Position numbers and translations under genes: made by a program. The notes beneath the pieces are model-generated. The model saw nothing but the letters and a program-made list of their open reading frames with translations. It did not search any database and was not told the origin of the DNA. Shown here piece after piece: positions 30,445 to 56,144 of a DNA stretch of 64,000 nt. Position 1 is the first letter of the stretch; each line of letters begins with the position of its first letter. This DNA is from Candidatus Uhrbacteria bacterium (GTDB lineage Bacteria; Patescibacteriota; Patescibacteriia; UBA9934): assembly GCA_943359345.1 (NCBI GenBank), contig CALRHE010000001.1:1995-65994 (forward strand), read 5' to 3'.

Positions 30445-30504
30445 ATTTTTCAGTCCACTAACGTGCCGATCGGCACGTTAGTGGATCATTGCAAAAATGC
30501 AATG

Positions 30505-31044: not shown

Positions 31045-31047
31045 AAG

Positions 31048-32553: not shown

Positions 32554-32881
32554 CGCTCAAAGCTTTGAGCAAGAGCAGTGGCAGGACCAGGACAATGATC
32601 GCGAGCACCAGTCGGAAAGCCCCGAAGGCATCGGCAGCCTGAAAAACGAGCAACGAGCCTATGATACCGATGGCGACGGCCACAATTTGGCAGCGGCGAT
32701 GAGGGGCACGCGCTCCCGAGCTCGTCACGAGAGCGCCGATGCCACATACCAATGCGATCAAGAGCACGATGTAAATTGGGAAGACCGAACTGACGAAACC
32801 AGGTACCTGCCACTCTACGTATACCAACGCCAAAAACGTCAGGCTCGAGACAACGTATCCGGTATACCAAAGACTACGCAT
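32540..32881 (-). CDS. Hypothetical small membrane protein
   Basis: 113 aa, 3-4 hydrophobic helices, no motifs. Confidence 0.35.
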   Translation of the reverse strand: MRSLWYTGYVVSSLTFLALVYVEWQVPGFVSSVFPIYIVLLIALVCGIGALVTSSGARAPHRRCQIVAVAIGIIGSLLVFQAADAFGAFRLVLAIIVLVLPLLLLKALSDVKE

Positions 32882-32882: not shown

Positions 32883-34352
32883 TTAGGGTAGCAACAACTT
32901 GATGAGACGCTTTAGATCGGCCAAAGTCTCATGTATGGACACGTGTGACTTTTGAAACGTCACCTTAACTGCATGAACCGAGACCTGGCCCAAGTTATCA
33001 TGAATACCTGGCGCTGAGAGCGCAAACTTGTAGGCGTTGTTCTCAACCGCTAGCGTCGAGGTTTCAAACGCAGCACTCGCCACGCGCCAACCATCAGCTT
33101 CTCGCACGGGAGCAAGATTTGCGAGCACATGTTCAACTTCGCTCGACTCCAGATCAGTAAAGGCCGTCAGAGCAATCGGGTCTGGATCAAAAAACGATTC
33201 ACGGCTAAAGGCATACTTTCCTTCCCCGGTAATTTTTACATCGCCTACGGGACTCCTGAGTTCGATCACGCCGGTCCCTGGCACCAGGCTAGAGTATTTT
33301 GCACCGACTTCGTTGATGACGATGGGTGATCCGCCAGCCGAAATGGTTTGCAGACCCTCAGTATGCCGAGTTTCAAGCGTAATCCGTTCTGCATTAGTAA
33401 ATAAACTCGTAGCTTTAGGTGTTGGCAAAAAACCAACATCATCTCCAATAAAAACTTGATTTTTTGCTACCACATAACGCTGAGAGGTTTCAATTGTCCG
33501 CCAAATAATATCGGAAGTCCCTGACAAGGCTATCCGATACACCCCTTCCGGCCAGTCATGTCCAGCCAACTTGAGCGGTGTTCGATCTCTGGGTTGTTGG
33601 TTAGCGTAAATATTTCCGTCGTCTTGACCTACGAACTCGGTCATAAGATTCCCGTTCTCGTCATACACCCGCACCGAAACGCGATCAGGGCCGTAAGTAC
33701 GATTAACGTCGGCGTAGAGTATATCCAAAGAGAAATCTTCGTCCTTGATATAGGTCAACAGCTCATGCGGACCCCGAAGACTCACATCAAACTTTTGTCG
33801 ACCTCCAAGTGGCTCATAGTTTGTTAGACGAAAAGGCGTTGGGAAGTCGGCTCGGTAGGTGGCCACAATCGACCGATCAGGCGGCGTTTCGAGAAAAGTT
33901 TGATAAGCGTCACTCTGGGCATCACGTGAAAAAATCGCTAGACGACCATCCAGGTCATGTCGCGTCCAATCAAGATCCTCGAGGAGCGAGTTCGACAAAG
34001 GTTGAAAATCAAAGGCTTGAGCCGCTACATCTTTCAGACCACCAATTTCGAAAGTCGGCGTTCCGTCAGGATCGAAGGCGACCTCAAGCTTTACGCTTTC
34101 AAAATTTCCCGGCGGCGGCGTCACCGAGAAATACACGGGCTCGTCGAGCAAAGTCACGTAATCATCACCGTTACGCGTCGCGAGCTCGCTCACACGTTCG
34201 TCGGGCAATGGTCGCTGTACAAACGGCGAGACGTCGCCCATTTCGTAACGAACAACTCGCTCACCCGACGGCACAAGATAATTCCAAAGCAGGCCTCCGA
34301 ACAGGAAGATAGGCAAGCTCCAAATAACTAGGCGAGCCAGGCGAATATTCAT
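32883..34352 (-). CDS. Hypothetical exported protein (signal-anchor), partner of the adjacent GT-C enzyme
   Basis: N-terminal hydrophobic anchor LVIWSLPIFLFGGLLW, otherwise hydrophilic 489 aa, no recognised domain; 2-nt gap to the GT-C gene. Confidence 0.4.
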   Translation of the reverse strand: MNIRLARLVIWSLPIFLFGGLLWNYLVPSGERVVRYEMGDVSPFVQRPLPDERVSELATRNGDDYVTLLDEPVYFSVTPPPGNFESVKLEVAFDPDGTPTFEIGGLKDVAAQAFDFQPLSNSLLEDLDWTRHDLDGRLAIFSRDAQSDAYQTFLETPPDRSIVATYRADFPTPFRLTNYEPLGGRQKFDVSLRGPHELLTYIKDEDFSLDILYADVNRTYGPDRVSVRVYDENGNLMTEFVGQDDGNIYANQQPRDRTPLKLAGHDWPEGVYRIALSGTSDIIWRTIETSQRYVVAKNQVFIGDDVGFLPTPKATSLFTNAERITLETRHTEGLQTISAGGSPIVINEVGAKYSSLVPGTGVIELRSPVGDVKITGEGKYAFSRESFFDPDPIALTAFTDLESSEVEHVLANLAPVREADGWRVASAAFETSTLAVENNAYKFALSAPGIHDNLGQVSVHAVKVTFQKSHVSIHETLADLKRLIKLLLP

Positions 34353-34353: not shown

Positions 34354-35928
34354 TTATTCGGCTACGAAACGATATAAGGACTCTTCACTCATGGTCTCCA
34401 CAAACTCGATCCGAACTCCTTGAAGTAAAACCTCGTTCAAATGCTCGATATCTTTCTCCGGCAAGGTGATTCCAAAATAATACACCGGCACCTGTTCGAG
34501 CATGGCTGGCAAGGTCGCGTACGTCGTCTCGCTTCGTAATGGAACGACGACTCGACGCTCTGGATAGAGGTATTTGTCGGCTCGGTCAACGATAACGATC
34601 GCTTCCGACTCGGTCAATGTTAGAATTCGAGCTTCCTTATCAACAAACGTCGCCAGGGCAGCTCGACTCGGTAGATACCCGTCGTGACCAAAGAAGACGA
34701 GCTCGAGCGACAGCAGCGTAGCGAGTATGACAATGCCGCCGGTAAAAACTTTTCTGAGTAACGATCGATCACCGAGCATGTAAACCAAGGTGCGAGCTCC
34801 AAAGACGCTCGCCAGCGCGAACAGTGGCAACCAGTAACGTACGTGGGAGTTGCCGAGAGAAATAATCGATGGGTCTGGGTTGTCGATAATTTTCCAGCTG
34901 CCGTATACAATGCCAAGCCAAGCTGCGAGGACTAACGTAAATACAGCTAACGTACGCCAGAGCTTTTTGTGTTCATCACGTTCAGCCAAGGCGAGTATGA
35001 GGCCAGCGACAGCGAGCACGCTCATCCAGGGATACAACTTCCAACCGTAATCTATGATGTTGTTGAGAATGACACGCTCGTGAAAACCAAATGGGAGTAA
35101 GAAATTTCTCTTCGGCTCGTCAATAGCTGTCGTAGCTGCATCGTCACTGATAACGATAGCCGCGTAGGGATACTGAGCCGTGTAACCATTCACAAATGGA
35201 CTACCGTACATCGTGGCGTTGATAACACCGAGCAGGCCTAGCATGGCCACAAAACCCACCGCCAAGCTCACCATCGACCTCCAACCAATCACGGCTCGAT
35301 AGAGCGCAAATACGGCCACGATAGCGGCCGTTAGCCAGATAATTTCTGACGTTCTGACGATCAGGGCAGCACCAAGGAACGCGCCAGCGATAGCAAAACT
35401 CAATGGTCGACGAGAACGTAGACTGAACCACACGCCAGCAATCACCAACGTCAAAAAGGCTACATTATGCATCATGACTCGACCGGAGTAGTACCAAAAA
35501 GCGGGATGAATCATGAGCAAAAATGCGGCTGCATCTGCTAAGAACTCGTTCTTGAAAACTCGCCGCACGCTGTCGCGCCAAAGAATGATGGCGATCACTG
35601 CAAGTACTGGCGTCACGAAATACATGGCGTAATTACCAAGGACAGCGCCAATCACGCCAAGTACGAACACGAAACCTACAAAACTCGCCGACACGATCGC
35701 TCCCCCGTAACCAATCGTACTGCGGGGATGCAACAAGCCACCCAGCTCGTCATTCAAGGCTTCAGAGGTCGATAAACGACCGGAGTCGGCAAAGGTTTTC
35801 GCGAATACATAAGCTGCGTTCTCATCCGGCGACACGAAAAGTTCGCGACTAAACGGCCAGCTCAAGGTTAAGGTCGACGCAAAAAAGAGGACGAGCACAA
35901 CCCCCCAGACCAAACGTCGAGTGGTCAT
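34354..35928 (-). CDS. GT-C fold glycosyltransferase (PMT/ArnT-like; candidate protein or lipid glycosyltransferase using polyprenol-P-sugar)
   Basis: About 12 TM helices; Asp-Glu pair in first extracytoplasmic loop (SPDENAAYVFAKTF), the position of the catalytic DE/DExRY motif in GT39/GT83 enzymes. Confidence 0.5.
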   Translation of the reverse strand: MTTRRLVWGVVLVLFFASTLTLSWPFSRELFVSPDENAAYVFAKTFADSGRLSTSEALNDELGGLLHPRSTIGYGGAIVSASFVGFVFVLGVIGAVLGNYAMYFVTPVLAVIAIILWRDSVRRVFKNEFLADAAAFLLMIHPAFWYYSGRVMMHNVAFLTLVIAGVWFSLRSRRPLSFAIAGAFLGAALIVRTSEIIWLTAAIVAVFALYRAVIGWRSMVSLAVGFVAMLGLLGVINATMYGSPFVNGYTAQYPYAAIVISDDAATTAIDEPKRNFLLPFGFHERVILNNIIDYGWKLYPWMSVLAVAGLILALAERDEHKKLWRTLAVFTLVLAAWLGIVYGSWKIIDNPDPSIISLGNSHVRYWLPLFALASVFGARTLVYMLGDRSLLRKVFTGGIVILATLLSLELVFFGHDGYLPSRAALATFVDKEARILTLTESEAIVIVDRADKYLYPERRVVVPLRSETTYATLPAMLEQVPVYYFGITLPEKDIEHLNEVLLQGVRIEFVETMSEESLYRFVAE

Positions 35929-35930
35929 AT

Positions 35931-36515
35931 CTAGAGCGAGTAGGTAGCTACGGCAATACCGGCAAACACTAACGAGGCCACAAACACATACTCAGCCAGC
36001 TGAATCAAGGCCGGGACATTGAAAACGATACCCAGCAAAAGCAGTGTGAGAGAACTAAATTGTAAAAACATCTTAAGCTTGCCCCAAACGTTAGCTGCCA
36101 TGATGGTTCCAGCGTAACGGGTTGAGGCCCAACGCAATGACGGTAAGATATCCAGCATGAGGGCGATGAACACGATCAGCGGATTAAAATGTTGTAGCGC
36201 CACAAGTAAGGCCACCGAACCAATCAGAAGCTTATCAGCTACAGGGTCAAAGAAAATCCCCCACGGCGTCACCTGCTTGCGGACACGGGCCACCGAGCCG
36301 TCGAGCGCATCCGTAAACGCAGCCAGAATAAATAGCGGCACCGCCCAGGTGTATTGCTCTGTAAACAACAACCATAAAACGATTGGCGTCATCAAAAAAC
36401 GTACCACCGTAATGTGGTTGGGGTGAACAAATTTGGGAACAAGCGGCAAAATAACCACCCTCATGACATAGTCATGGGGGTAGAGTTTTGTCATGTCTCG
36501 ATGCGTGCCAATCAT
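35931..36515 (-). CDS. CDP-alcohol phosphatidyltransferase family protein
   Basis: Motif DALDGSVARVRKQVTPWGIFFDPVADK = D-x2-DG-x2-AR-x8-G-x3-G-x3-D. Confidence 0.75.
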   Translation of the reverse strand: MIGTHRDMTKLYPHDYVMRVVILPLVPKFVHPNHITVVRFLMTPIVLWLLFTEQYTWAVPLFILAAFTDALDGSVARVRKQVTPWGIFFDPVADKLLIGSVALLVALQHFNPLIVFIALMLDILPSLRWASTRYAGTIMAANVWGKLKMFLQFSSLTLLLLGIVFNVPALIQLAEYVFVASLVFAGIAVATYSL

Positions 36516-36548
36516 GCTATAGTTCTAGCAAATATTCGCTAAAATACC

Positions 36549-38576
36549 ATGTCTCGTCGATTTTTACCACTCCTGGCGCTGATCCCGGTCATCATCAACG
36601 CTTATGCCATATCTGAAGCCTGGTTTGGGGTGCTGGCCCTGCTGGCTTATCTTGTGGGCTGTGGCCTAACCTTGGGGCCGCGACTCGCGCCCCTGTCCCC
36701 GCGCCCGCTCCAGCTTGGTCTAGGCATGATGTCAACTCTGGCTGGAATCAGTATCTTAGGCAGCCTGGTCTATTATAGCGCGACCGTTACCACCGAAAGC
36801 CTATTAGCTGTAATCGTTGTCATTGCCGGTCTAGCTTGCGTAGCCTCACCAAATAACCCTACCACCTCCTCCCTACCACCTACCACTTCCTCTAAAATTG
36901 ATCTAGCCCTCTTCGTTTTGGGCTTGCTGTCCCTGTCTGGCTGGTGGATAACTATCTTCTCAACCCCCATTACTGAACCTATTCGTTCAGTCTGGCTAGC
37001 ACTTGATCCCTTGGTACTTGTAGCGCTTGGTCTCTCAAGCCTGTGTGCGCTCACGCTGTGCGTACGTAATCGCTCCTTAGATTTAGCCCTGGTGTTGACG
37101 GCTGTGATTTTGTTCTCAGCCACCTCAGTCGTAGCCGTCACTTACGACCTGGGTTACGGCTTTGATCCATTTCTGCACCGAGCCAGCGTTGCCCACATAT
37201 TAGACCACGGTACTATCACGCCAAAACCCCTGTACTACATCGGGCAATACGCACTCGAGCTAACCGGAGTAAAACTTTTCTCGCTCCCAGTTTTTGCTCT
37301 TGATACCTTACTCGCTCCCGTGCTCGCAGCCTTTGGCATTGTCATGGCTTTAGCCAATCGGAATGCCAGCATTAAGTCTCCGAGCATTGTGCTCGCCAGC
37401 CTCGTGTTCTTACCGCTCGCAGCCTTTGTGCAAACCACACCTCAAGCCCTGGCCTTTGTATTCACAGCTTGGGCATTATTTACAAGTACCAGGCCCCGGC
37501 TAGCACCAGCCATCTTCGCCCTCGCAGCCGTAATCACCCACCCACTAGCCGGTATTGGCGCCGTCGTCTACGTGGTTCTCTTAGCACTCGACGACATTCC
37601 CAATCATTATCAACCTTGGCGGGTTGCGAGCCTGGCCTTAGTCACACTGGCAGCCGCCGTGGCTATCCCCATGGCTTTTGTGGTTCAAGCCAACCTCGCC
37701 CAGCTCTCAATCGAATTCTCGCTCAGTAATGTTTTTAAACTCTGGCGACTGCCAATTGATAGCTTCTTAACTACGCAATACAACGCCTGGGGGGACACCG
37801 CCTACTTTTTCATTGGTAACGCTTTTCTGATCGTGCTCGTGCTTGCAATCATCGGAATCACGCTCACCCCAAAAACCACTTACGGCTGGTACGTACCCGG
37901 CTTGGTGGCGCTCGCAATGTTTATAAACTTTATCATCATTAGTCTAGGCTTTGATTTTACTTTCTTGATCGCTTACGAACGGACGGATTTTGCACTGCGA
38001 CTTTTGACTCTCACAACGCTTTTCTTGCTTCCCTACGTAGCTGTCTTGCTCACGACCATCTGGAAAAAACTCCACCACTCACCAGTCGGCTTACGTCTCG
38101 GTTTCACGGTTGTGTTGTCGCTCGTATTTGTGACCAACGTCTACGCCGCCTATCCGCGTCATGACAATTACGCTCGCTCAGCCGGTTTCAATCTCGGCCC
38201 CTCAGATTTGGACGCTGTTTCAGGCATTGAAACCTCGGCCCAAGGTGAGCCTTACATTGTCCTGTCTAACCAAGCCCTGGCGGCCGCAGCCGTTTCAGAA
38301 CTTGGCTTCAAAGCTTATTACCACGAAGATATTTTCTTTTATCCTATCCCGACCGGCGGTCCTTTGTATCAACATTTCTTAGCCATGGTGGAGGATAAAC
38401 CAACCACAACCACCATGCTTGAGGCCATGGATCTGGCTGGTGTTGATCTAGCTTATTTTGCAGTTCACAGCTACTGGTGGCAGGCCCCCGAAATTATTGA
38501 AAATGCCAAAGCTATCGCCGACGACTGGTTTGGCGTGGGCGATAACGCTGTCACCGTGTTTATATTCCGTCGTTAA
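36549..38576 (+). CDS. Large polytopic membrane protein of unknown function (possibly a GT-C/polymerase-like enzyme)
   Basis: 675 aa, more than 12 predicted TM helices, Pro/Thr/Ser linker SPNNPTTSSLPPTTSSK; only + strand gene inside the glycosylation block; family not recognisable by eye. Confidence 0.45.
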   Translation: MSRRFLPLLALIPVIINAYAISEAWFGVLALLAYLVGCGLTLGPRLAPLSPRPLQLGLGMMSTLAGISILGSLVYYSATVTTESLLAVIVVIAGLACVASPNNPTTSSLPPTTSSKIDLALFVLGLLSLSGWWITIFSTPITEPIRSVWLALDPLVLVALGLSSLCALTLCVRNRSLDLALVLTAVILFSATSVVAVTYDLGYGFDPFLHRASVAHILDHGTITPKPLYYIGQYALELTGVKLFSLPVFALDTLLAPVLAAFGIVMALANRNASIKSPSIVLASLVFLPLAAFVQTTPQALAFVFTAWALFTSTRPRLAPAIFALAAVITHPLAGIGAVVYVVLLALDDIPNHYQPWRVASLALVTLAAAVAIPMAFVVQANLAQLSIEFSLSNVFKLWRLPIDSFLTTQYNAWGDTAYFFIGNAFLIVLVLAIIGITLTPKTTYGWYVPGLVALAMFINFIIISLGFDFTFLIAYERTDFALRLLTLTTLFLLPYVAVLLTTIWKKLHHSPVGLRLGFTVVLSLVFVTNVYAAYPRHDNYARSAGFNLGPSDLDAVSGIETSAQGEPYIVLSNQALAAAAVSELGFKAYYHEDIFFYPIPTGGPLYQHFLAMVEDKPTTTTMLEAMDLAGVDLAYFAVHSYWWQAPEIIENAKAIADDWFGVGDNAVTVFIFRR

Positions 38577-39811
38577 ACTTCACTGGTATCAGAAACTACT
38601 TGGATTTGATGTTTATGCACAATTGACTGAATAATTTCAACCAGCCGCAGAGCATATTTATCCAAGGCAAAATCAGCTACTGTGGCTCTAATGTTTTCAC
38701 CTGAGGCGATCAATTGGTCCTTATGAAAATCCAGTTCATCAATGGCTCGAATAAAATCTTGGTCATCACCCGGCGTAAATAAATAGCCAGACACGCCTTC
38801 TTGAATCAACTCCCCTACTCCACCAATACGTGCAGCGACTACCGGCAAACCTGCGTTTAAGGCTTCGTAGATTACCGTCGGAGAATTTTCGTAACACAGT
38901 GATGGGACTACTAGGGCATCAACAATCGAAAAAAACTTACTCAACTCCTCCGGCGGCATGTAACCAAGATAACGAATACTGTTGTCATGGGCGGCAGCGG
39001 CCTCAACTAACGGCCGCAATTGGCCGTCACCAACTATTAACAACCTACGGTCTCGTTTCAAATTCTTATAGGTTTCCAACAAAAATTTAATCCCCTTGTG
39101 GCTAGCCAATTGGCCAACGTATAGCAGCTGGAGTGGACCAGGAGCTCGTTGCTCCGGTCGAGGAGAACTGTGTACCGGCGGTGGATTGCGTAAGACACGA
39201 ATTTTTGTGTGTTGAAAAAAACCAGCCTCAAGATAAACCTGCTTTAAATACTCGGAGGGTGAAATAACCATGTCAGGGTTGCCAATTCGGTTCTGACAAA
39301 AATATTTATACACTTTATAAAACGGCTGAGCCCAGCGTGAAGCTTGCTCTTGACCAACTATCAGCAGTCCCGAGGGATAGATCAGCTGTAAATCATGAAG
39401 TACATGAATGTGGGCAATACCTTCAGCTCTAATCACTCGTGGAATATTTAAACCTAGACCTTTCAAGTTGTGAGTGATGACTACATCTGGACGTTCAGCT
39501 TGAAGAATAGTGCGAACGCGAGTAGTGGCGTGCCAAGTTAAGGCGTCGATGGCGTGCCATAACAAGCGCACCCAAGCTGGGTATTTATAATCGTCAAGCG
39601 TGAAATATAAATTAGGTGGGAAGAAACGATACACCCGTTCAGTGCTCGAACGATCAAGGGTGATGTGTTTACCTAATTTTCTAGGCTGTCCGGTAATCAC
39701 AAACACATCATGACCCATGGCCAGCAATTGGCCAACGGTTCTAACGATGACATTTTCGGCTCCGCCACGGGTATGCGGTGGATACAAATTGGTAACAATG
39801 CCGATCTTCAT
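38573..39811 (-). CDS. Glycosyltransferase family 4 (GT-B, glycosyl transferase group 1)
   Basis: MKIGIVTNLYPPHTRGGAE N-domain start; C-terminal E-x7-E region (ENSPTVIYEAL). Confidence 0.85.
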   Translation of the reverse strand: MKIGIVTNLYPPHTRGGAENVIVRTVGQLLAMGHDVFVITGQPRKLGKHITLDRSSTERVYRFFPPNLYFTLDDYKYPAWVRLLWHAIDALTWHATTRVRTILQAERPDVVITHNLKGLGLNIPRVIRAEGIAHIHVLHDLQLIYPSGLLIVGQEQASRWAQPFYKVYKYFCQNRIGNPDMVISPSEYLKQVYLEAGFFQHTKIRVLRNPPPVHSSPRPEQRAPGPLQLLYVGQLASHKGIKFLLETYKNLKRDRRLLIVGDGQLRPLVEAAAAHDNSIRYLGYMPPEELSKFFSIVDALVVPSLCYENSPTVIYEALNAGLPVVAARIGGVGELIQEGVSGYLFTPGDDQDFIRAIDELDFHKDQLIASGENIRATVADFALDKYALRLVEIIQSIVHKHQIQVVSDTSEV

Positions 39812-39817
39812 AAACTG

Positions 39818-40933
39818 CTAAAGCGCAGTCATCCTGTTGTACACCTCCACTAATCTGTCCGCAAGTATAGCCTTGGTGTAGCCACTCAAAAGGCGTTCTC
39901 TGGCTTTGTCTCCCAAAGTCTTGGCTAGCCCTGGCTCATCTAAAAACTTCTGCATGGCTACCTCCAGAGCTTCGTCTACCCCTGATGCGACCACAACACC
40001 CGTCCTCCTATGCTCCACGAGCGTACGCATACCCGGCAAATCTGAAACTATCGAAGGTAAACCGCTAGCGGCCGCCTCTAAGGTAACCAATCCAAACGCC
40101 TCACTCTTACTGGTCGAGGGTAGAATATGAACATCGGCCGCCCGGTAGGCTCGTGGCAGCTCTGCGTCTCTGACTGCACCAGCAAAAGTCACTCGATCAG
40201 CAATACCGAGTGTCTTAGCCAACTCGGTGTAGGCGGTGCGCATATCGCCGTCGCCGACGATCAATAAACGCCAGTCCTGATTGAAGTCCAAATGCGCTGC
40301 GGCTCGGATCAAGACATCAACCCCCTTAAAAGAGTGAGCTCGGTCGAGTCCACCCACAAACACAAACACGAGTGACGAGCTTGGAATGTTGTATTTAGCC
40401 CTGAACTCATCATCACGACCCGGTGCAAAACGTTGCTCGTCAACGCCGAAAGGCATCTCGATCAGCTGATCATGTTTCAGACCGATCGACTGAGCATAAT
40501 CAAATGAGCTTACGAGCACGGCCCTGGCCTGTCTGACAATCAAGGGCTCGATGATTAAGCGATGCAAGCGGAAAATGAGATCGCGCCAGTCGCTGGTTTT
40601 AGGCTGCATGTGATAGGTCAACACATACGGTTTACGTCGCAATACTGACCATAACCACACAAAAATATCGGCACCATAAAAAGTGTAGTGCAAATGTGCC
40701 AAATCATGTCCATCGAGTTTCTTCACGAGCTGCGGCAGCACTGCTGCGTTCCCGAAAGCCAACACCGGCGTCAGATACTCAGCCTCAGGCTGCTTACCCC
40801 GATCACGATAAGCTGGGGTATAAACGGTAACCTCGAAACCGCGTATCTTAAGCTCGGTGGCGTCATGAGCGGCCACCGCTCCCATGCCGCCTTTATAGGG
40901 CGGAAACACCGGCGTAACAATTGCGATTTTCAC
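39818..40933 (-). CDS. Glycosyltransferase family 4
   Basis: MKIAIVTPVFPPYKGGMG; C-terminal GT1 domain with SEAFGLVTLEAAASGLP. Confidence 0.85.
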   Translation of the reverse strand: MKIAIVTPVFPPYKGGMGAVAAHDATELKIRGFEVTVYTPAYRDRGKQPEAEYLTPVLAFGNAAVLPQLVKKLDGHDLAHLHYTFYGADIFVWLWSVLRRKPYVLTYHMQPKTSDWRDLIFRLHRLIIEPLIVRQARAVLVSSFDYAQSIGLKHDQLIEMPFGVDEQRFAPGRDDEFRAKYNIPSSSLVFVFVGGLDRAHSFKGVDVLIRAAAHLDFNQDWRLLIVGDGDMRTAYTELAKTLGIADRVTFAGAVRDAELPRAYRAADVHILPSTSKSEAFGLVTLEAAASGLPSIVSDLPGMRTLVEHRRTGVVVASGVDEALEVAMQKFLDEPGLAKTLGDKARERLLSGYTKAILADRLVEVYNRMTAL

Positions 40934-40934
40934 A

Positions 40935-42014
40935 CTACCAAAAAATCACCTTACGCCCGGCCTTAAAAGCTTCATCTACAACCGGGTTGATGAGCTGATC
41001 CATCAGCGGACTAGCTGTTTCTTGATGTTCGATCTTACCAACTACAAACCGTAAAAACTCACGATCAGGTATGCTGCGTAAGGTCTGTGCTCGCGCGCGC
41101 ATGCGCCACAATAACTGCCAGGTTCTAGGCAGAAACCACTGACCAAAAGCCCAAACCTTGGCCTTAATCCAACCACCCTTGAGAGCCAGCGGCCAACTGC
41201 CAAGCTCGATCGCCAGCAACAAGGGGGAGAACAAGATCAGAGTCGCGGGTTTGTAATAAGCATAAGTGACAATATTCCGATACAGCTCCATCCAGGCAAA
41301 CTTTTTAGGATTACGGCTGAATTTATAGTCGTGATAAGCAAATGACTTGGCTGCTAGTACATTCCTATAGCCAGCAAAACGCAGACGCATCCCGAGCTCG
41401 AGATCCTCGTGATACATAAAGAAGCCCTCCTCGAGCAGTCCGACCTTCTTCAAAGCAGTAGCCCTATACAGCACAGCTGCCCCACTGGCGTAAGCAATGT
41501 CTTCCCCGTCGATCACCTTAATCTCAGACATCAACTTGCCGTTGTCACGAGCAAACCCGTAACCGGCGATGTGAATAACGCCGCCCGTCACATTCACCTT
41601 TTCTTGCTCATGCCAGTATCGAACAAGACATTGGACCGAGCCGACCTCAGGCGACGATTCAGCAATCCGTACAGCTTCCGTCATCGAGTCTGGAGCTAGC
41701 TTGAGATCACCGTTATGCAAAAAAACGTAATCAAAGTCCCGCTCGAGTGCATAGCGTATGGCCAGGTTATTGTTGGCTGCGAAACCTCGATTCTGACCAT
41801 CATCAAGCAGTACGACCTCGGGTAAATCTTGGCCGGATCTAGGCACAACGTCGCTCCGAATAGCGTCAGCAATTCCGTCCGGCGAGCCAGCTGGCACCAA
41901 AATAAACGTCAGACGATCTTTGGGATAATCTAACTTGGCAATTGCATCAACAATGTCTTCCAAATACACCTTCATCCCCCAACATAAATACACGATCGCA
42001 ATTTTAGGCTGCAT
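40935..42014 (-). CDS. Glycosyltransferase family 2 (rhamnosyl/galactofuranosyl-transferase-like)
   Basis: GT-A fold: IAIVYLCWG, DDGQNRGFAANNN, DxD-like HNGDL. Confidence 0.8.
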   Translation of the reverse strand: MQPKIAIVYLCWGMKVYLEDIVDAIAKLDYPKDRLTFILVPAGSPDGIADAIRSDVVPRSGQDLPEVVLLDDGQNRGFAANNNLAIRYALERDFDYVFLHNGDLKLAPDSMTEAVRIAESSPEVGSVQCLVRYWHEQEKVNVTGGVIHIAGYGFARDNGKLMSEIKVIDGEDIAYASGAAVLYRATALKKVGLLEEGFFMYHEDLELGMRLRFAGYRNVLAAKSFAYHDYKFSRNPKKFAWMELYRNIVTYAYYKPATLILFSPLLLAIELGSWPLALKGGWIKAKVWAFGQWFLPRTWQLLWRMRARAQTLRSIPDREFLRFVVGKIEHQETASPLMDQLINPVVDEAFKAGRKVIFW

Positions 42015-42020
42015 ATATGT

Positions 42021-42389
42021 TCAGGGTTTATCAACTCTATGAATGGCGATCTGGCGAACAAGTTCGGTGATCTCCTCAGATACTTGTTGCTGTTTTAGTA
42101 ATAAACGATGAACGATGTAAAACAAGACCACGATGCCAATGTAAACTAATAAGTCGGCCCCTCTGCCAACACCCACCTCGGCGGCAATAATGTCCGTGGT
42201 TTGAGGTGTGATGGCCACGCCTGCCACCACTAGCCAGAAAAAACTAACGGCCACCAACCAGTACTTTGAAACTTTACGGGCTGTATAGTCCTTCCAAGTT
42301 TTAAACACGGCGTAGACCGCAAAGACTACCAAAGCAATTTGAAAAATCATATTAGCGGACGAATTTCTTCTTGAGTAAGTCCTTGGCAA
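42021..42389 (-). CDS. Small 2-3 TM protein, DUF2304-like partner of the DPM1-like glycosyltransferase
   Basis: 122 aa, N-terminal TM helices plus C-terminal charged helix; overlaps the upstream GT2 gene by 38 nt, the usual arrangement for DUF2304-GT2 pairs (recalled, not searched). Confidence 0.4.
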   Translation of the reverse strand: MPRTYSRRNSSANMIFQIALVVFAVYAVFKTWKDYTARKVSKYWLVAVSFFWLVVAGVAITPQTTDIIAAEVGVGRGADLLVYIGIVVLFYIVHRLLLKQQQVSEEITELVRQIAIHRVDKP

Positions 42390-43029
42390 TCACCAAAGCC
42401 CGCCAGGTTGAAGGACTTTTCTTTAAAGTATCTTGTGAATAACGAATAGTCACTGGCTGCTCCTGGTAACGTAAGGACTTAACCTTAATTAAATCTAGAA
42501 TTTCCGAAGCGTGTGCCATGCGATCAAGCGTAATGCGAATATCCTGTGCCGCCTGACGTGATAAAGCTCGAAAACCGTTTTGTGAATCAGTTAACCAAAT
42601 TCCGGACACGGAGTAATTAAATAAGACTCCGGCCCGCAACACCAGGCGACGAGCACGTGGCATGTTCAAGGCTACCTGACCAAGAAAGCGTGAACCAAGT
42701 ACGATATCGGCCTGTCCTAACAAAATCGGAGTAATCAAGGCCTCAATGTCACAGCCCTGCATCTGGCCGTCAGCATCAAAATGCACAATTACATCTGGGT
42801 GTAGATGCAGGATGGCGTAGTCGGTAGCTGTTTGCAAAGCCGCTCCCTGACCGCGATTAATGGCGTGCCTCAGCACTGTCGCTCCAGCCGCCCTAGCCAC
42901 TGCTCCAGATCGATCTCGACTACAGTCATCAACCACCACCACCGCCTGAGTGTAAGTCAAAGCATCAGCAACAGCGGCCCCAATTCGGGTTTCTTCGTTA
43001 TACGCAGGAATAACGGTAACTATGCGCAT
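42352..43029 (-). CDS. Polyprenol-phosphate glycosyltransferase (GT2, DPM1/Ppm1-like)
   Basis: 225 aa soluble GT-A: VIPAYNEE, VVVDDCSRDRS, DADGQ. Confidence 0.85.
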   Translation of the reverse strand: MRIVTVIPAYNEETRIGAAVADALTYTQAVVVVDDCSRDRSGAVARAAGATVLRHAINRGQGAALQTATDYAILHLHPDVIVHFDADGQMQGCDIEALITPILLGQADIVLGSRFLGQVALNMPRARRLVLRAGVLFNYSVSGIWLTDSQNGFRALSRQAAQDIRITLDRMAHASEILDLIKVKSLRYQEQPVTIRYSQDTLKKSPSTWRALVIAKDLLKKKFVR

Positions 43030-43106: not shown

Positions 43107-44111
43107 CTAACCAGCGTTCGTCAACAAAAGTTTATTAGCCCGTACGTAATCAATAGTTTTCTTAAGCCCGTCATCAAGTCTGACCAACGGTATCCAACCA
43201 AGCGTTTCGCGCGCCTTATGCAAATTTGGGAGCCCGAGCGGAATCATGTAAGCCAGCGGTGGTTCATATTCTAGCTTAACCTCGTTTTCGGCTAAGGCCA
43301 TGATTTTGTGCGCCACGTCTGAAATTTTCAAATTAACATCACTCCCCAGGTTAACCGGTCCGATCCCCTTATCGGCTTTCATTAAGCGCAATAATCCATC
43401 AACGACATCAGTGACATAAATCAAGGCCGTCGTAGTTGCAGCATCACCCATAACCAAGAGTGGTTTACCATCCAGTACATTTAAAACAAAGTCCTGAATC
43501 TGATGGCCATGAAAGAGCGGCATGCGCGGGCCATAAGTTCTAAAGATACGCGCGATCTTGGCATCCAAACCATACACGTCAGCGTAGGTAGCAAACATGG
43601 TTTCGGCAAACCGCTTGCCTTCATTTAAGGCAGCGCGCGGGTTCAGGTGGTCGACTATGCCAAGCTCTGTTTCATCAACGCCATCGGAATCGGCCGGTCG
43701 CGCCCCGTAAACTGTACCCGCCGAGGCCAGCAAGACGCGCGCCTTGTATTTAACCGCTGTATCAAGCACGTGCCGGGTACCAACCGAATTAGCCAACAAA
43801 ATTTGCAGCTTAAACTGCTCGTAACCCTTCACGGCCGTAGGCATGGCCAAGTGATAAATTTCCTGGATACCAAGAAACTTCACCTGAAAAGGTTCAAGCT
43901 CAGGAAAAGATTCTAGATCAAAAGGTTCATTAATATCGAGCCTGAGAAATTGAAAATCTGGGTTACGTAACATGGGTTCAAGATTACGCACGTGACCAGT
44001 TGAAAAATTATCAATACAAATCACCCGACAGCCGTCTCTTAACAAAGCCTCGCACAAAAACGAACCTATAAAACCAGCCCCACCTGTGACTAAAACTGTT
44101 TTTTTCTCCAT
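43107..44111 (-). CDS. NAD-dependent sugar-nucleotide epimerase/dehydratase, UDP-glucuronate decarboxylase (UXS)-like
   Basis: VLVTGGAGFIGSFLCEALLRDGCRVICIDNFSTGHVRNLEPMLRNPDFQFLRLDINEPF closely follows the UXS/ArnA-C N-terminal pattern. Confidence 0.75.
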   Translation of the reverse strand: MEKKTVLVTGGAGFIGSFLCEALLRDGCRVICIDNFSTGHVRNLEPMLRNPDFQFLRLDINEPFDLESFPELEPFQVKFLGIQEIYHLAMPTAVKGYEQFKLQILLANSVGTRHVLDTAVKYKARVLLASAGTVYGARPADSDGVDETELGIVDHLNPRAALNEGKRFAETMFATYADVYGLDAKIARIFRTYGPRMPLFHGHQIQDFVLNVLDGKPLLVMGDAATTTALIYVTDVVDGLLRLMKADKGIGPVNLGSDVNLKISDVAHKIMALAENEVKLEYEPPLAYMIPLGLPNLHKARETLGWIPLVRLDDGLKKTIDYVRANKLLLTNAG

Positions 44112-44112: not shown

Positions 44113-46197
44113 TTACCAAGCGGCTAAATATCCACCTCTGTCCCCGACCAAGTTATCACCCACACTACTCAATAAGTCACCCGTGTGCGAATACACACTA
44201 ACTGGCCCAGGCGTAGCTTGCGGAGCCAGGACTATATCAGGTTCACCGCTCACATCAATGTCAGCTACGCTCAGACGTAACTCCACACCGTCAGCCTGAG
44301 GAGTAGCAAAACCACCCCAATAAGCCCCGATCTTATTATAGATGCGCACGGCAGCCTCATCACCCTTGCCACCCACAGTTATAATTTCATCGCGATAGTC
44401 GTCGTCCAGATCAGCCGTATCTACCCTAACTCCGCTAAGTTCACCAGGAAAAGCTATAAAATCAACCACTCGTGTACCGTCGATATTATAAACGGCCACG
44501 CGTGATTCTCCGGTCTCTGAGAAAACTACAATTTCTTTCTCCCAGTCGTTATCAACATCAGCAATAGCCACTGACAGTGGCGCCTTATCTGCAAAGCCAG
44601 TCACCGTAAAACGGCTTTTCTCTTGCCCAGTTTGTGACCACACCACTACATCATTGCTCACACCGGCCCCAACCGCAGTCACCACATCCATTTCAGAGTC
44701 AGCGTCAACATCACCTATGGCAATATTTACACCCTTGTCAGAAGCTTTGTCATATGCAAAAAACTCAGATACAACCGCGCCGTATGGCTTAAATATACGC
44801 ACATGTGGCCCGCCACTTGGACCAGCCCCTGTAATAATTTCTGGCACGTTATCACCATCAAGATCTTCGGCCACCACCCGCACGCCGCCGGTAAAGTTAG
44901 TGGTATAAGCCGTAAACGTAGCGTAGGCGGTACCATCGGCCCGATACACCTCAACCGTCGGCAAGTCTCCGGCTGGCGCCCCCAAGGCTACAAACGAGTA
45001 ATAAGCAGAATCAAGGTAATGCTCATCTGCAATCGGCTGGGTGGACTTTGGCTCAGTGCTCACGGGCTTTGTACTATCATTGTCGGCAATGGCTTCTGCA
45101 AAAGATGGTGCCAGGGCTAGAGCTTGTTCGATATTCAATCTGCCAACGCCGATCGAACCGGCCCCACTTAGAGTGGCTTTAATTGGATCCACTGACAGTT
45201 TCAAAATCGTAAACACTTGGGCTGGTGTTAAGCTTGGATATTCTGATAACAACAAACCAGCGGCACCGGCCACGAGCGGGCTTGAAATCGATGTTCCGTT
45301 CCAAGGTCCACCATAAGCTTCGTCGGTTCTATTGGCCGCATCTTGATAATCCAGTCCTGTAATATCTACGCCGGGAGCGCTTAAGTCAGCGCAAGTCGCA
45401 CCGTAATTAGTGAAGTCAGTTTCTTCGTCAGCCAAACCAGTCGCGGTTACGCCTAAAACCCAATCTTCAATCTCAGAATGGTAACAAGCTGGGTAAACTG
45501 GCTGATCGTCCACGTTGACACTATCATTTCCAAGCGCAGCCACAATCACTACCCCGGCCTCATAAGCACGCAGTACCGATGTACGTAATTGCGAACCAGT
45601 GGCCGTACCTGCAAAACTCATGTTAATAACCCTAGCTCCGTTAGCCACGGCGTAATCAATAGCCTCGGCTGTAGTCTCCTCATCACCCACACCGTTCTCG
45701 TTTAAAACTCTAAGCGGCATCACGTCTACCTCCCACAACAAACCAGCATAACCAATGTCATTGTCAGCCTGAGCACCAATCAGACCGGCAATCAAAGTGC
45801 CATGAGACATGGCCCCGGATTCATCGGTAGCCGGCTCTTCAGGTTCTGGAACAGCATCATCATCAACAAAATCCCAACCCTGCACGTCATCAACAAAGCC
45901 ATTGTCATCGTCGTCTCTACCGTTATTAGCTACCTCTGCATCATTGTTCCACAAATTCTCTAATAGATCCGGATGATCCAGATCAACACCAGTATCCAGC
46001 ACCGCAATGATCAAATCGTCAGCGCCGGTTGTGATGTCCCAAGCAGACTCAGCCCCAATCGGACCAAGGTACCACTGATCCCTAAAAAATACGTCATTAG
46101 GCGTTCTGGCCTGCACCCAGGAAAACGGTAACGATAACAAAATGGAAACCGCCAGTAGCAATTTATGCATACTAGATAAGTATACAGGATTAGTCAT
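44113..46197 (-). CDS. Secreted subtilisin-like serine protease (S8) with C-terminal FG-GAP repeats
   Basis: Signal peptide; catalytic triad motifs AVLDTGVD (Asp), SHGTLIAGLIGA (His), GTSISSPLVAGAAGLL (Ser); C-terminal repeats like DLDGDNVPEIITGAGPSGGPHVRIF. Confidence 0.85.
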   Translation of the reverse strand: MTNPVYLSSMHKLLLAVSILLSLPFSWVQARTPNDVFFRDQWYLGPIGAESAWDITTGADDLIIAVLDTGVDLDHPDLLENLWNNDAEVANNGRDDDDNGFVDDVQGWDFVDDDAVPEPEEPATDESGAMSHGTLIAGLIGAQADNDIGYAGLLWEVDVMPLRVLNENGVGDEETTAEAIDYAVANGARVINMSFAGTATGSQLRTSVLRAYEAGVVIVAALGNDSVNVDDQPVYPACYHSEIEDWVLGVTATGLADEETDFTNYGATCADLSAPGVDITGLDYQDAANRTDEAYGGPWNGTSISSPLVAGAAGLLLSEYPSLTPAQVFTILKLSVDPIKATLSGAGSIGVGRLNIEQALALAPSFAEAIADNDSTKPVSTEPKSTQPIADEHYLDSAYYSFVALGAPAGDLPTVEVYRADGTAYATFTAYTTNFTGGVRVVAEDLDGDNVPEIITGAGPSGGPHVRIFKPYGAVVSEFFAYDKASDKGVNIAIGDVDADSEMDVVTAVGAGVSNDVVVWSQTGQEKSRFTVTGFADKAPLSVAIADVDNDWEKEIVVFSETGESRVAVYNIDGTRVVDFIAFPGELSGVRVDTADLDDDYRDEIITVGGKGDEAAVRIYNKIGAYWGGFATPQADGVELRLSVADIDVSGEPDIVLAPQATPGPVSVYSHTGDLLSSVGDNLVGDRGGYLAAW

Positions 46198-46886: not shown

Positions 46887-47017
46887 ATGTCACCCAGGGT
46901 AGCCGATGCCAACATTTTTGCCAACAGCCCACCACCTCAAACCCGCCCTTGCGGGCGGGTTTGAGTGTCTAAACACTTCGGTAAAGAAGCAGAGACGCAG
47001 TCTGAAATCCCTCAGGA

Positions 47018-51343: not shown

Positions 51344-51435
51344 TCAAGGGGTAAAGAATAGAGGTGACACCCGACCGTGCGGTCCCGACCTTTTGAAGGT
51401 ATCCACCTGGGGAGATGCGATTGCAATCCCTTTGT

Positions 51436-51473: not shown

Positions 51474-51482
51474 GTGAAGGTT

Positions 51483-56124: not shown

Positions 56125-56144
56125 ATCGGCTCACTTTTCCGGGT

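Follow-up and report, generated by a model that had tools for sequence, protein, structure and literature searches.

The systems closest to the locus described here are GacI/GacJ/GacL of S. pyogenes, which concerns the GlcNAc side chain of the group A rhamnose carbohydrate, and PpgS (Rv3631)/Rv3632/Rv3779 of M. tuberculosis, which concerns GalN on arabinogalactan. GacJ and Rv3632 are DUF2304-type proteins that stimulate their synthases, Rv3632 acting on PpgS, and a gacL mutant accumulates GlcNAc-P-Und. An earlier reading made from the sequence only had called this kind of organisation undescribed in CPR-like bacteria. No description of GT2, DUF2304 and GT-C together in CPR bacteria was found in the literature, which is consistent with that claim, but the organisation and its mechanism are well known from streptococci and mycobacteria. 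We consider it probable that a lipid-linked sugar is made inside the cell by the system described here and attached outside by two family-less GT-C-fold membrane proteins.

A conserved locus in Uhrbacteria-like Patescibacteria

The region belongs to an envelope-glycoconjugate locus of ∼15 kb that is conserved in Uhrbacteria-like Patescibacteria (CPR). Its genes, which are syntenic across these genomes, encode a UXS-like SDR, a GT2, a DUF2304 protein, another GT2, two GT4, two GT-C, two membrane proteins without family, HIT and RmlBCD. Synteny was counted in 80 species-level genomes, with denominators that vary by gene (for GT2 and GT-C, the genomes with enough flank). The 225-amino-acid GT2 (42352–43029) and the GT-C (34354–35928) are 6.4 kb apart with five genes between them, and intergenic gaps inside both operons are 1–6 nt. 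GT2 and DUF2304 genes were found within 10 kb of the GT-C gene in at least 45 of the 57 species-level genomes with enough flank, and this co-occurrence is far beyond chance. The window, meaning the whole 64-kb stretch of DNA analysed, also contains a WecA-like and a Wzy_C-like gene.

The end of the gene string is formed by rmlB, rmlC and rmlD (29593–32064, minus strand) for dTDP-L-rhamnose synthesis. RmlB matched TIGR01181 at 418 bits, above the cut-off, and lies downstream in 47 of 54 loci; RmlC matched PF00908 and RmlD PF04321. Next to them is a HinT-like nucleotide hydrolase/transferase of the HIT family (32131–32553, minus strand; PF01230, 6e-24; NCBIfam HinT, 2.4e-28), which was found in 57/63 loci and overlaps the preceding gene by 14 nt. 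That gene encodes a small membrane protein of 113 amino acids with 3–4 TM by hydropathy (32540–32881, minus strand). It matched no Pfam family, GtrA and EamA included, and a positional orthologue of ∼110–125 amino acids with 3–4 TM lies between the 489-amino-acid protein gene and HIT in 58 of the 66 loci examined. The 489-amino-acid protein (32883–34352, minus strand) starts one base past the GT-C stop and has one N-terminal TM and a large extracytoplasmic domain, with D215, N217, D223, D244 and D245 invariant. No Pfam, NCBIfam or PDB match was obtained for it, even with a 45-sequence profile, and it is kept in 60/70 loci.

The putative synthase and its DUF2304 partner

The 225-amino-acid GT2 on the minus strand matched PF00535 (3e-18) and contains no hydrophobic segment by hydropathy. 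Its predicted role is that of GacI, PpgS and DPM1, the synthesis of a polyprenyl-phosphate sugar. The best NCBIfam match was the PpgS polyprenyl-phospho-GalNAc synthase (E 1.7e-50, over 4–218/226), AglJ and dolichyl-P-hexose transferase models were matched as well, and several homologues carry the JGI name polyprenyl-phospho-GalNAc synthase. The PpgS score of 171.6 bits is well short of the 370 bits required for an equivalog, so the family match does not by itself fix GalNAc as the sugar. The sole PDB sequence match was the Pyrococcus Dol-P-Man synthase 5mlz, and DD34-35, D85-A-D87 and Q89 of GT2 align with its motifs VVVDDD and DADLQ. Judged by sequence, GT2 belongs to the polyprenyl-phosphate-sugar synthase clade and not to the processive synthases, and it is the only candidate for a polyprenyl-monophosphate-sugar synthase recognised in the window.

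The small membrane protein is located immediately downstream of GT2 and matched PF10066 (5.9e-20; 71.9 bits, cut-off 25.5), as a GacJ/Rv3632-type partner. A TTG start (42021–42389) gives a 38-nt overlap with GT2. The ATG at 42350 is the more likely start, giving a predicted protein of 109 amino acids with 3 TM (42021–42350, minus strand). This ATG sits one base past the GT2 stop (TAA-t-ATG), and in 47 loci the pair is adjacent with a gap of 0–182 nt. This partner would keep the soluble GT2 at the cytoplasmic face of the membrane and activate it. As its family and motifs suggest, GT2 would then load polyprenyl phosphate with one sugar taken from a UDP-sugar.

Immediately upstream of GT2, as in 41/57 loci, is a UXS-like extended SDR of 334 amino acids (43107–44111, minus strand; PF01370, PF16363). 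Its best PDB match was human UDP-glucuronate decarboxylase (1e-57), followed by one at 2.7e-31. In the alignment the catalytic positions are changed in the source genome (Y to L, TSE to AGT), and most orthologues keep Tyr and Ser with Val in place of the UXS Glu. The SDR may modify the nucleotide sugar for the donor, though it is without the catalytic Tyr here, a loss that counts against our explanation.

All three ORFs picked out by the sequence-only reading are present, on the minus strand and at the coordinates it gave. Its description of GT2 as short, soluble and of the dolichol-phosphate-mannose-synthase type agrees with the PF00535 match, the missing TM and the DAD..Q residues aligned to 5mlz, and the family matches are to the polyprenyl-P transferase clade and not to a processive nucleotide-sugar synthase. 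The name Ppm1 is too specific, since the best family match is PpgS (GalNAc) and this is below its cut-off. The tight coupling that had been claimed for the small protein holds with either start; it is a membrane protein with 3 TM (2–3 had been proposed), whereas the TTG start with its overlap is the less likely one.

The GT-C-fold proteins and the acceptor

The GT-C-fold glycosyltransferase of 524 amino acids (GT-C524, minus strand) carries an S-P-D-E motif in extracytoplasmic loop 1 and an 85-residue C-terminal alpha/beta domain. GT-C524 itself matched no Pfam family, no match to Pfam PMT (GT39) or NCBIfam ArnT was obtained in profile searches, and weak Pfam PMT_2 matches were seen for 16 of 47 homologues. 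All homologues are from Patescibacteria, with 477 species-level genomes encoding a relative. The AlphaFold (AF2) model has a pLDDT of 91.2 and a pTM of 0.91. Each of the 22 best fold matches in the PDB is a GT-C enzyme, 16 of them at E <1e-3. ALG12 and ArnT (5f15, E 5e-7) rank first and second, and Pmt1 and Pmt2 22nd and 28th (E 0.06–0.17, ∼285 columns), behind ALG12, ArnT, OSTs and AftA. About 12 membrane helices are seen in the model, in which the 418–438 helix is not hydrophobic. D35-E36 follows TM1, where the first loop helix begins, and S33-P34-D35-E36 does not vary among the 47 homologues, down to 39% identity. The fold and the motif mark it as a GT-C enzyme, the fold being that of a predicted structure.

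These results bear out the 12-TM GT-C with an Asp-Glu pair in its first loop that the sequence-only reading had proposed, and the protein appears neither as a transporter, the best 22 fold matches all being GT-C enzymes, nor by equivalog match as an ArnT enzyme. The label Pmt is too specific, as no profile places GT-C524 in GT39 or with ArnT, and Pmt1/Pmt2 are weak, low-ranked fold matches. The core of the lipid-carrier route, a DPM1-type GT2 with a small partner followed by a GT-C outside, is supported, but the Ppm1/Pmt labels and mannose are not. That reading had overlooked the second GT-C-fold protein, the near-universal coupling to a CDP-alcohol phosphatidyltransferase, the GT4, GT2 and Rml genes alongside, and the synteny of the locus as a whole.

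The rank of ArnT among the fold matches, together with a UXS/ArnA-like SDR adjoining an ArnC-like GT2, would fit an ArnT-type modification of lipid A. We regard this as extremely improbable: there is no NCBIfam ArnT match, ArnC reached only 19.5 bits, and no ArnB, ArnD, formyltransferase or LPS genes occur in the window. Patescibacteria are also generally regarded as having no outer membrane.

As judged from the model, the GT-C fold by itself does not choose between a polyprenyl-P-sugar and a polyprenyl-PP-glycan donor, OSTs being among the fold matches. GT2/DUF2304 and GT-C524 might not be a donor-user pair: GT-C524 and/or the second GT-C-fold protein could act on polyprenyl-PP glycans as ligase, polymerase or OST-like enzyme, with the GT2/DUF2304 product serving another enzyme or one GT-C only. 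The WecA-like and Wzy_C-like genes would suit this. In at least one lineage, and also at loci L024 and L027, none of the GT2, DUF2304 and GT4 genes lies within 10 kb of a minimal core (TM675, CDP-OH, GT-C, two small membrane proteins and HIT), so the GT2/DUF2304 pair is a frequent but separable neighbour. However, several genomes that lack the co-occurrence have insertions that displace the pair beyond the flank, and the two genes are mostly within 10 kb of the GT-C. GT-C524 also lacks the WWDYG motif, its C-terminal domain is only ∼85 residues long, and its two best matches, ArnT and ALG12, use monophosphate donors. We consider this alternative improbable.

In the preferred explanation, the lipid-linked sugar made by GT2 would be flipped and then transferred outside to an acceptor by GT-C524, with D35/E36 as the putative catalytic residues, and probably also by TM675. 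TM675 is the second GT-C-fold membrane protein, of 675 amino acids (36549–38576, plus strand), divergent from the CDP-OH/GT-C operon and conserved in 70/73 loci. Family searches recognised no flippase (Wzx, GtrA, ArnE/F or MATE) and no ABC exporter in the cluster. The 113-amino-acid membrane protein is, speculatively, a candidate flippase for the lipid-linked sugar.

The acceptor would most likely be a rhamnose-containing envelope glycan or glycolipid, the inner part of which may be built in the cytoplasm by two GT4 and a GT2 from nucleotide sugars including dTDP-rhamnose (RmlBCD). This GT2 of 359 amino acids (40935–42014, minus strand; PF13641, 1.3e-13) belongs to the same operon and is predicted to act in the cytoplasm as a Leloir glycosyltransferase, with weak NCBIfam matches to PgaC (1.6e-7) and a rhamnosyltransferase model (6.4e-7) and a C-terminal hydrophobic segment at residues 259–277; its gene is present in 35/57 loci. 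The retaining GT4 of 371 amino acids (39818–40933, minus strand; PF00534, 7e-37) is closest to MshA, BshA and PimA. It matched NCBIfam MshA at 7.2e-37, below the cut-off, and in the PDB C. glutamicum MshA (1.6e-24) and PimA and PimB' (∼2e-12). The second GT4 has 412 amino acids (38573–39811, minus strand; PF13692 and PF00534, ∼1e-29), and both are found in 52/57 loci. The glycan could be anchored on polyprenyl diphosphate and then on the wall, or on a phospholipid from the coupled CDP-alcohol phosphatidyltransferase.

The last enzyme (194 amino acids, 35931–36515, minus strand; PF01066, 1e-29) is PgsA-like and is the most constant partner of GT-C524, directly upstream in 78/79 loci and joined to it by a 2-nt spacer (TAG-at-ATG). 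Its motif D69xxDGxxAR..G..D..D94 is complete. These observations, and its retention in the core that lacks GT2 and GT4, would fit a PIM/LM-like pathway, in which the transferase makes the head group of a phospholipid-anchored lipoglycan, the GT4s add the first sugars at the cytoplasmic side and the GT-Cs extend or branch it outside after flipping, both supplied with polyprenyl-P-sugar by the GT2/DUF2304 pair. The relatives of the 371-amino-acid GT4 use inositol-phosphate, malate and phosphatidylinositol, the cluster contains neither an exporter nor, by Pfam-type family search, a phosphoglycosyl transferase, and having two GT-Cs for one donor synthase recalls the pairs that elongate and branch LM/LAM (PMC3123699). 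But the transferase is nearer to housekeeping PgsA (NCBIfam pgsA model, 78 bits, cut-off 109; S. aureus PgsA in the PDB, 5.9e-9) than to PIP synthase (37 bits; 4e-5), and it may be the genome's only pgsA within a conserved operon. The GT4 matches are of a kind common throughout that family, neither an inositol-phosphate synthase nor an acyltransferase turned up, and the Rml genes and the WecA-like gene would suit a wall glycan linked to polyprenyl-PP just as well. Such a pathway is possible, though we consider it less likely than not.

Transfer to proteins appears unlikely. In this alternative, resembling Ppm1/Pmt or GtrB/PgtC2, the GT-C would glycosylate secreted proteins on Ser/Thr, for instance a 1441-amino-acid acidic Thr/Ser-rich protein (11.2% Thr, 9.1% Ser, 17.6% Asp+Glu), whose composition and N-terminal hydrophobic segment would be suitable. 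The loop-1 DE pair resembles the PMT motif, and there is a precedent in streptococci, where GtrB works with the GT-C PgtC2 to glucosylate membrane-associated proteins in their Ser/Thr-rich regions. The 1441-amino-acid protein is encoded on the same strand as the operon, ∼3 kb upstream, the genes for TPR, S8 protease, SDR and GT2 form a tightly packed string (S8-SDR gap 1 nt), and a relative at 65–72% identity has the same arrangement. However, the Pmt1/Pmt2 fold matches are weak and partial and there is no Pfam PMT match; the 1441-amino-acid protein has no long Ser/Thr-only disordered stretch (peak 37.5% S+T in 40 residues) and is absent at the equivalent site in two more distant genomes keeping the whole cluster. 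The giant Thr-rich protein, once suggested as acceptor, is no conserved neighbour and is present near the cluster only in close relatives. Protein glycosylation also leaves the CDP-OH transferase, the GT4s and the Rml genes unexplained.

Comparison with known systems

Mycobacterial PIM/LM synthesis (PgsA1, PimA, PimB', the PimE/Mpt GT-Cs and Ppm1) uses the same enzyme classes, namely a CDP-OH transferase, two GT4, several GT-C and a polyprenyl-P-sugar synthase. Here a single locus contains them all, the transferase resembles PgsA more than PIP synthase, and orthology to Pim or Mpt enzymes is not demonstrated. Streptococcal O-glucosylation of Ser/Thr-rich regions by GtrB/PgtC2 and LTA glycosylation by CsbB/GtcA/YfhO share the three-part design of GT2 synthase, flippase and GT-C, but those synthases have C-terminal TM helices of their own and no DUF2304 partner, and their flippases GtrA/GtcA are recognisable, unlike any here.

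Actinobacterial protein O-mannosylation (Ppm1/Pmt) and the eukaryotic DPM1-DPM2/3/PMT system share with this locus the two-step logic, the DAD..Q motif aligned to Dol-P-Man synthase, a TM-less synthase reliant on a small membrane partner and the loop-1 DE pair in the GT-C. In contrast, GT-C524 gave no GT39 match and resembles Pmt1/Pmt2 only weakly in fold, a mannose donor is not indicated, and a protein acceptor is unsupported by synteny.

PpgS/Rv3632/Rv3779 provides the top family model for GT2, likewise has a DUF2304-type partner adjoining the synthase, and has a GT-C that uses the polyprenyl-P-sugar. The differences are the score of GT2 below the equivalog cut-off, a GT-C unrelated in sequence, and the host, a monoderm-like CPR bacterium without arabinogalactan. 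Compared with GacI/GacJ/GacL, the locus has two GT-C-fold proteins, a GT-C of another sequence family, a CDP-alcohol phosphatidyltransferase coupled to it, and neither a Wzx-like GacK nor an ABC exporter GacDE found in the cluster. Both have a short GT2 making (here, predicted to make) the polyprenyl-P-sugar, a 3-TM DUF2304 partner immediately downstream, transfer outside by a GT-C, as proposed for this locus, and a cluster with dTDP-rhamnose genes and further GT2/GT4.

A predicted polyprenyl-phosphate-sugar synthase and its coupled genes

The three ORFs of the proposed glycosylation module were confirmed on the minus strand at 42352-43029, 42021-42389 and 34354-35928. The first encodes a 225-amino-acid protein with a GT-A catalytic domain of family GT2 (PF00535, 3e-18, 66.8 bits against a cut-off of 23.3), in which hydropathy analysis showed no hydrophobic segment. 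Its top curated NCBIfam family was PpgS, the mycobacterial polyprenyl-phospho-GalNAc synthase (1.7e-50, model positions 4-218 of 226), followed by archaeal AglJ (1.6e-19) and dolichyl-P-hexose transferase (2.1e-14). The score of 171.6 bits is below the PpgS equivalog cut-off of 370, and the ArnC equivalog gave 19.5 bits, below its cut-off of 529. The sole PDB sequence match was the Pyrococcus dolichol-phosphate mannose synthase 5mlz, in whose alignment VVVDD (D34, D35) is kept and D85-A-D87-G-Q89 falls on DADLQ. Homologues number in the thousands (more than 100 clusters at at least 60% identity), and several of them are labelled polyprenyl-phospho-N-acetylgalactosaminyl synthase by JGI. On sequence grounds, the GT2 is assigned at family level to the polyprenyl-P-sugar synthase clade (DPM1/GtrB/ArnC/PpgS/GacI). 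The sequence-only reading, which had seen here a soluble enzyme of the dolichol-phosphate-mannose-synthase type, was borne out by the domain, the PpgS and AglJ matches, the 5mlz alignment and the lack of a hydrophobic segment.

The gene at 42021-42350 encodes a protein with three hydrophobic helices that matches PF10066 (71.9 bits against a cut-off of 25.5, model positions 2-104 of 106) and is, at the family level, a DUF2304 protein, a putative synthase partner of the GacJ/Rv3632 type. The two genes are joined as TAA-t-ATG with a 1-nt spacer, so the product is probably 109 amino acids long, starting from the ATG at 42350. The TTG start chosen in the sequence-only reading gives a 38-nt overlap with the GT2 gene. 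The coupling of a small membrane protein to the GT2, which that reading had described, is tight whichever start is used, and the two genes adjoin in 47 loci.

A UXS-like SDR is encoded directly upstream of the GT2 (43107-44111, minus strand), and its best PDB match by far was human UDP-glucuronate decarboxylase (1e-57). The copy in this genome has Leu where the catalytic Tyr is expected, and AGT where TSE is. Most orthologues keep the Tyr and the Ser and carry Val in place of the UXS-specific Glu; in six the Tyr is replaced by Phe. The SDR may be inactive or repurposed. Identifying the sugar through this adjacent gene was dropped, the Tyr being missing here and the Glu in most orthologues. Since the GT2 also scores below the PpgS cut-off, the sugar is not readable from these genes.

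Further upstream, genes for an ECF sigma factor, a DUF5667 protein, an acidic, Thr/Ser/Asp-rich secreted protein of 1441 amino acids without a Pfam match, a TPR protein and a mycosin-like S8 protease with FG-GAP repeats run into the glycosylation operon (44113-53079, minus strand; compare positions 1-8854 of L087, a locus from a relative). A single nucleotide (1 nt) separates the S8 and SDR genes. Distant relatives retain the TPR-S8 pair, but the giant protein is retained only in a close relative.

Two GT-C-fold proteins

No Pfam model matched the 524-amino-acid protein of the window encoded at 34354-35928 (GT-C524), and in NCBIfam it faintly matched a family of putative Leptospira glycosyltransferases. 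The PDB yielded no matches by sequence or by profile, and only fold comparison was informative. All homologues came from Patescibacteria metagenomes. S33-P34-D35-E36 is invariant in 47 of these homologues, down to 39% identity, and 16 of the 47 match only PMT_2 (PF13231), weakly. An AlphaFold model built from this alignment (pLDDT 91.2, pTM 0.91) was compared with the PDB using Foldseek. The 22 top matches were all GT-C enzymes, among them ALG12 (2.8e-7) and ArnT (5f15, 5e-7); STT3, PglB, AglB, AftA, DPY19, ALG3, AftD, PimE and Pmt1 were also matched, and unrelated transporters ranked beneath the GT-C enzymes with low probability. Because every one of these top fold matches is a GT-C enzyme, GT-C524 is placed in the GT-C superfamily by its predicted fold. 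The catalytic acid of GT-C enzymes is found just after TM1, where the first loop helix begins. In the model, D35-E36 lies just past TM1 and opens loop helix 34-49. From the fold we infer a lipid-phosphate-linked donor.

The sequence-only reading had likened this protein to protein O-mannosyltransferases and ArnT on account of an Asp-Glu pair in the first loop. The GT-C fold, the invariant D35-E36 and the similarity to ArnT in fold agree with part of that view, but profile classification assigned the window protein to neither GT39 nor GT83. For GT39/PMT there was no PF02366 or PMT_4TMC match, and Pmt1 and Pmt2 ranked 22 and 28 by fold. GT-C524 is not specifically a PMT, because the latter two gave E values of 0.06-0.17 over partial alignments. 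For ArnT (GT83) there was no NCBIfam match, the likeness being one of fold only, and ArnB, ArnD, ArnE and ArnF were absent from the locus neighbours; a lipid A reading, having neither profile nor context support, was dropped. An oligosaccharyltransferase (GT66) assignment was also rejected: the WWD[YWF]G motif is found in neither GT-C524 nor the second GT-C-fold protein, and the C-terminal domain of GT-C524 is small (about 85 residues in the model).

The second protein, TM675 (675 amino acids, 36549-38576, plus strand), is encoded between two gene groups and has no Pfam match. Its AlphaFold model (pLDDT 90) gave AftA, PglB and STT3 as best Foldseek matches, and hhalign of the two family alignments showed no sequence relation to GT-C524. 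The loop GYGFDPFLHR is invariant. D206 serves as the conserved acidic position of TM675 and lies in a loop beyond the first extracytoplasmic one. The packing around TM675 is unusually tight for opposite-strand genes: 33 bp (36516-36548) separate its start codon from the divergent one of the minus-strand gene for a CDP-alcohol phosphatidyltransferase, and its other end overlaps a convergent GT4 gene by 4 nt. In one Uhrbacteria genome (locus L085, 13404-15063) the TM675 orthologue is called as two ORFs of 240 and 284 amino acids, which may be a frameshift or a pseudogene.

We propose that the locus works by a three-component mechanism, because the arrangement of GT2, DUF2304 protein and GT-C has been worked out in S. 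pyogenes and M. tuberculosis. The GT2, tethered and activated by the DUF2304 protein, would make a polyprenyl-phosphate-sugar, which would be flipped across the membrane and used outside by one or both of the GT-C proteins. Resting on family and fold assignments, motifs and synteny, this mechanism is probably the right one.

Conserved gene order and the candidate acceptors

A pattern and tblastn scan of one genome per GTDB species gave 477 genomes with a GT-C524 relative. The best 80 of these are titled Candidatus Uhrbacteria, Patescibacteria or Parcubacteria, apart from some bulk-submitted records with other titles. Many public records with a Patescibacteria-type locus (L008, L012, L014 and others) are titled 'uncultured Gammaproteobacteria bacterium' and one 'Candidatus Kapaibacterium'; these look like bulk-submission mislabels because of their gene content. 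Neighbours were counted by tblastn with the proteins of the window in those of the best 80 loci with enough flank. A CDP-alcohol phosphatidyltransferase gene was found directly upstream of GT-C524 on the same strand in 78 of 79 loci, and TM675 on the opposite strand in 70 of 73. A single-pass membrane protein of 489 amino acids (P489) was near GT-C524 in 60 of 70 loci, a HIT protein in 57 of 63, the GT4 pair in 52 of 57 and RmlB in 47 of 54. The GT2 and DUF2304 genes lay within 10 kb in 45 of 57 loci; in several of the misses, insertions displace the upstream genes as far as the flank edge. The same order was found in called-gene tables with Pfam labels, an independent view. One lineage has a lone core of TM675, the CDP-alcohol phosphatidyltransferase, the GT-C, a 180-amino-acid protein, a 109-amino-acid protein and HIT, with no GT2, DUF2304 or GT4 gene within 10 kb. 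Given the counts and this core, the tightest partners of GT-C524 are the CDP-alcohol phosphatidyltransferase and TM675, and the unit of GT2/DUF2304 and two GT4 genes is a frequent but separable neighbour. The sequence-only module was thus incomplete, having overlooked these two partners and the conserved downstream and intervening genes.

The CDP-alcohol phosphatidyltransferase (194 amino acids, 35931-36515, minus strand; PF01066, 1e-29) has the complete motif D69xxDGxxAR..G..D..D94, and its stop codon lies 2 bases upstream of the GT-C524 start (TAG-at-ATG). Its best equivalog was pgsA (78 bits, cut-off 109), with 37 bits against the PIP-synthase cut-off of 170, and in the PDB S. aureus PgsA gave 5.9e-9 versus 4e-5 for PIPS. 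The putative enzyme is more like PgsA than PIP synthases. Between the GT2/DUF2304 pair and TM675 are a second GT2 (GT2_359, 40935-42014) and two GT4 genes (GT4_371, 39818-40933, and 38573-39811), all on the minus strand. GT4_371 is closest to MshA, BshA and PimA (MshA 1.6e-24, PimA/PimB' about 2e-12 in the PDB), a similarity at family level only. One Uhrbacteria genome other than that of L085 has an IS200-type Y1 transposase between GT2_359 and the GT4 genes (loci L003/L004, 3269-3967).

An acceptor analogous to PIM/LM, that is, a phospholipid-anchored lipoglycan, would fit the near-obligate coupling of the GT-C and CDP-alcohol phosphatidyltransferase genes, the GT4 that resembles MshA and PimA, and the pairing of a single donor synthase with two GT-C enzymes, but the phosphatidyltransferase resembles an ordinary PgsA. 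In its full form, this reading has a PgsA-like enzyme making the head group of the anchor, two GT4 enzymes priming in the cytoplasm and two hitherto unclassified GT-C families, one with P489 as its dedicated extracytoplasmic partner, polymerising or branching the glycan outside from a polyprenyl-P-sugar made by a GacI/GacJ-type pair, as a signature of Uhrbacteria-like Patescibacteria. We regard that full pathway as rather unlikely. If true, it would be the first defined CPR envelope glycolipid pathway and would found two new GT-C families.

Downstream of GT-C524, gaps of 1, 1 and -14 nt lead to P489, P113 and HIT, followed by RmlB, RmlC and RmlD. P489 (32883-34352, minus strand) has a large outside domain with invariant D215, N217, D223, D244 and D245 and no family match; a 45-sequence profile matched nothing in the PDB or Pfam. 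Some lineages have a single-pass protein of about 190-275 amino acids in its place. P113 (113 amino acids, 32540-32881, minus strand) has 3-4 TM helices; its G28 is invariant and the F-V after it nearly so. A small 3-4 TM protein was present between the P489 gene and HIT in 58 of the 66 loci examined. A Pfam scan (E up to 1) of 55 positional P113 orthologues gave no GtrA, EamA or SMR match, only scattered noise, so a flippase role for P113 stays a guess. The HIT protein, between P113 and RmlB, is HinT-like.

A rhamnose-containing wall glycan as acceptor, on the pattern of the Gac system, is supported by RmlBCD in the same gene string, by the extra GT2 and GT4 enzymes, and by two genes elsewhere in the window, one WecA-like (3855-4943) and the other Wzy_C-like; against this, the cluster has no exporter or recognisable flippase. 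The window holds two PF00953 phosphosugar transferases on the minus strand. The one at 22492-23571 is MraY (208 bits, above the cut-off) and belongs to a dcw-type cluster that also encodes FtsW, MurG and Mur ligases. The WecA-like one at 3855-4943 (114.6 bits, below the cut-off) is a possible priming enzyme for polyprenyl-PP-linked glycans. Downstream of the cluster, at 53607-57722 and 61862-62506 (minus strand), two further GT4 genes together with genes for a Wzy_C membrane protein (O-antigen polymerase/ligase-like) and a Wzz-like GNVR protein point to a distinct polysaccharide locus of the Wzy type, in which no Wzx was identified. The region 57700-61500 has a GC content of 0.58-0.62 versus about 0.50 elsewhere and encodes several small proteins whose N-termini look like signal or lipobox sequences (LAGC, LAAC, MGAC). 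Apart from a weak Cys/Asp metal-binding motif of the MopE type, these proteins have no Pfam family; the region contains no tandem repeats, gave no Rfam match and may have been acquired as an island of secreted lipoproteins.

The sequence-only reading had named the giant Thr-rich protein, or else a lipid, as a possible acceptor, the first of which would mean protein O-glycosylation. Streptococcal GtrB/PgtC2 gives a recent precedent, and the 1441-amino-acid protein is acidic, Thr/Ser-rich and encoded upstream on the same strand. Synteny does not support this acceptor: a close relative alone keeps the protein in this place, and it is missing there in two more distant genomes that have the whole cluster. 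Protein O-glycosylation also accounts for none of the other cluster genes. Between a protein and a glycan or glycolipid that the locus itself would make, we lean slightly towards the latter.

Comparison with known systems

CPR/Patescibacteria are tiny, mostly uncultured and often epibiotic, and their surface must mediate attachment to the host. To our knowledge, there is almost no experimental knowledge of their envelope glycoconjugates. A locus conserved in hundreds of Uhrbacteria-like species is a concrete, testable entry point to the CPR envelope. The donor synthase pair can be assayed in E. coli membranes, the two GT-C proteins without a Pfam family could define new CAZy families, and P489 and P113 offer two further conserved membrane proteins for study. 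In agreement with the sequence-only reading, no description of a system of this kind in CPR, Patescibacteria or Uhrbacteria was found in the open-access literature. Three-component extracytoplasmic glycosylation is already well established in Firmicutes, Actinobacteria and Proteobacteria, so its occurrence in Patescibacteria extends a known pattern and is not surprising. The unusual features are the near-obligate coupling of the GT-C and CDP-alcohol phosphatidyltransferase genes, the two unclassified GT-C families and the two conserved membrane proteins without a family, which could reflect a CPR-specific lipoglycan pathway.

The combination of GT2, DUF2304 protein and GT-C belongs among the widespread transmembrane glycosylation systems described as three-component or multi-component. 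In S. pyogenes, GacI makes GlcNAc-P-undecaprenol. GacJ, a DUF2304 protein of 113 amino acids with three TM helices, enters a complex with GacI, whose Km for Und-P it lowers and whose Vmax it increases from 54 pmol to 18.5 nmol/min/mg. GacL, the GT-C of this system, has been proposed to move GlcNAc onto polyrhamnose, based on the phenotype of a gacL mutant. PpgS, Rv3632 and Rv3779 have the corresponding roles in M. tuberculosis; complex formation with the synthase and its stimulation have been shown for GacJ and Rv3632 only. The locus of the window shares the GT2, DUF2304 and GT-C combination with both the Gac and the mycobacterial systems. Mycobacterial PpgS is the top family for its GT2, yet the equivalog cut-off was not reached, and whereas the PIM/LM pathway has a PIP synthase, the CDP-alcohol phosphatidyltransferase of the window scores nearer to pgsA.
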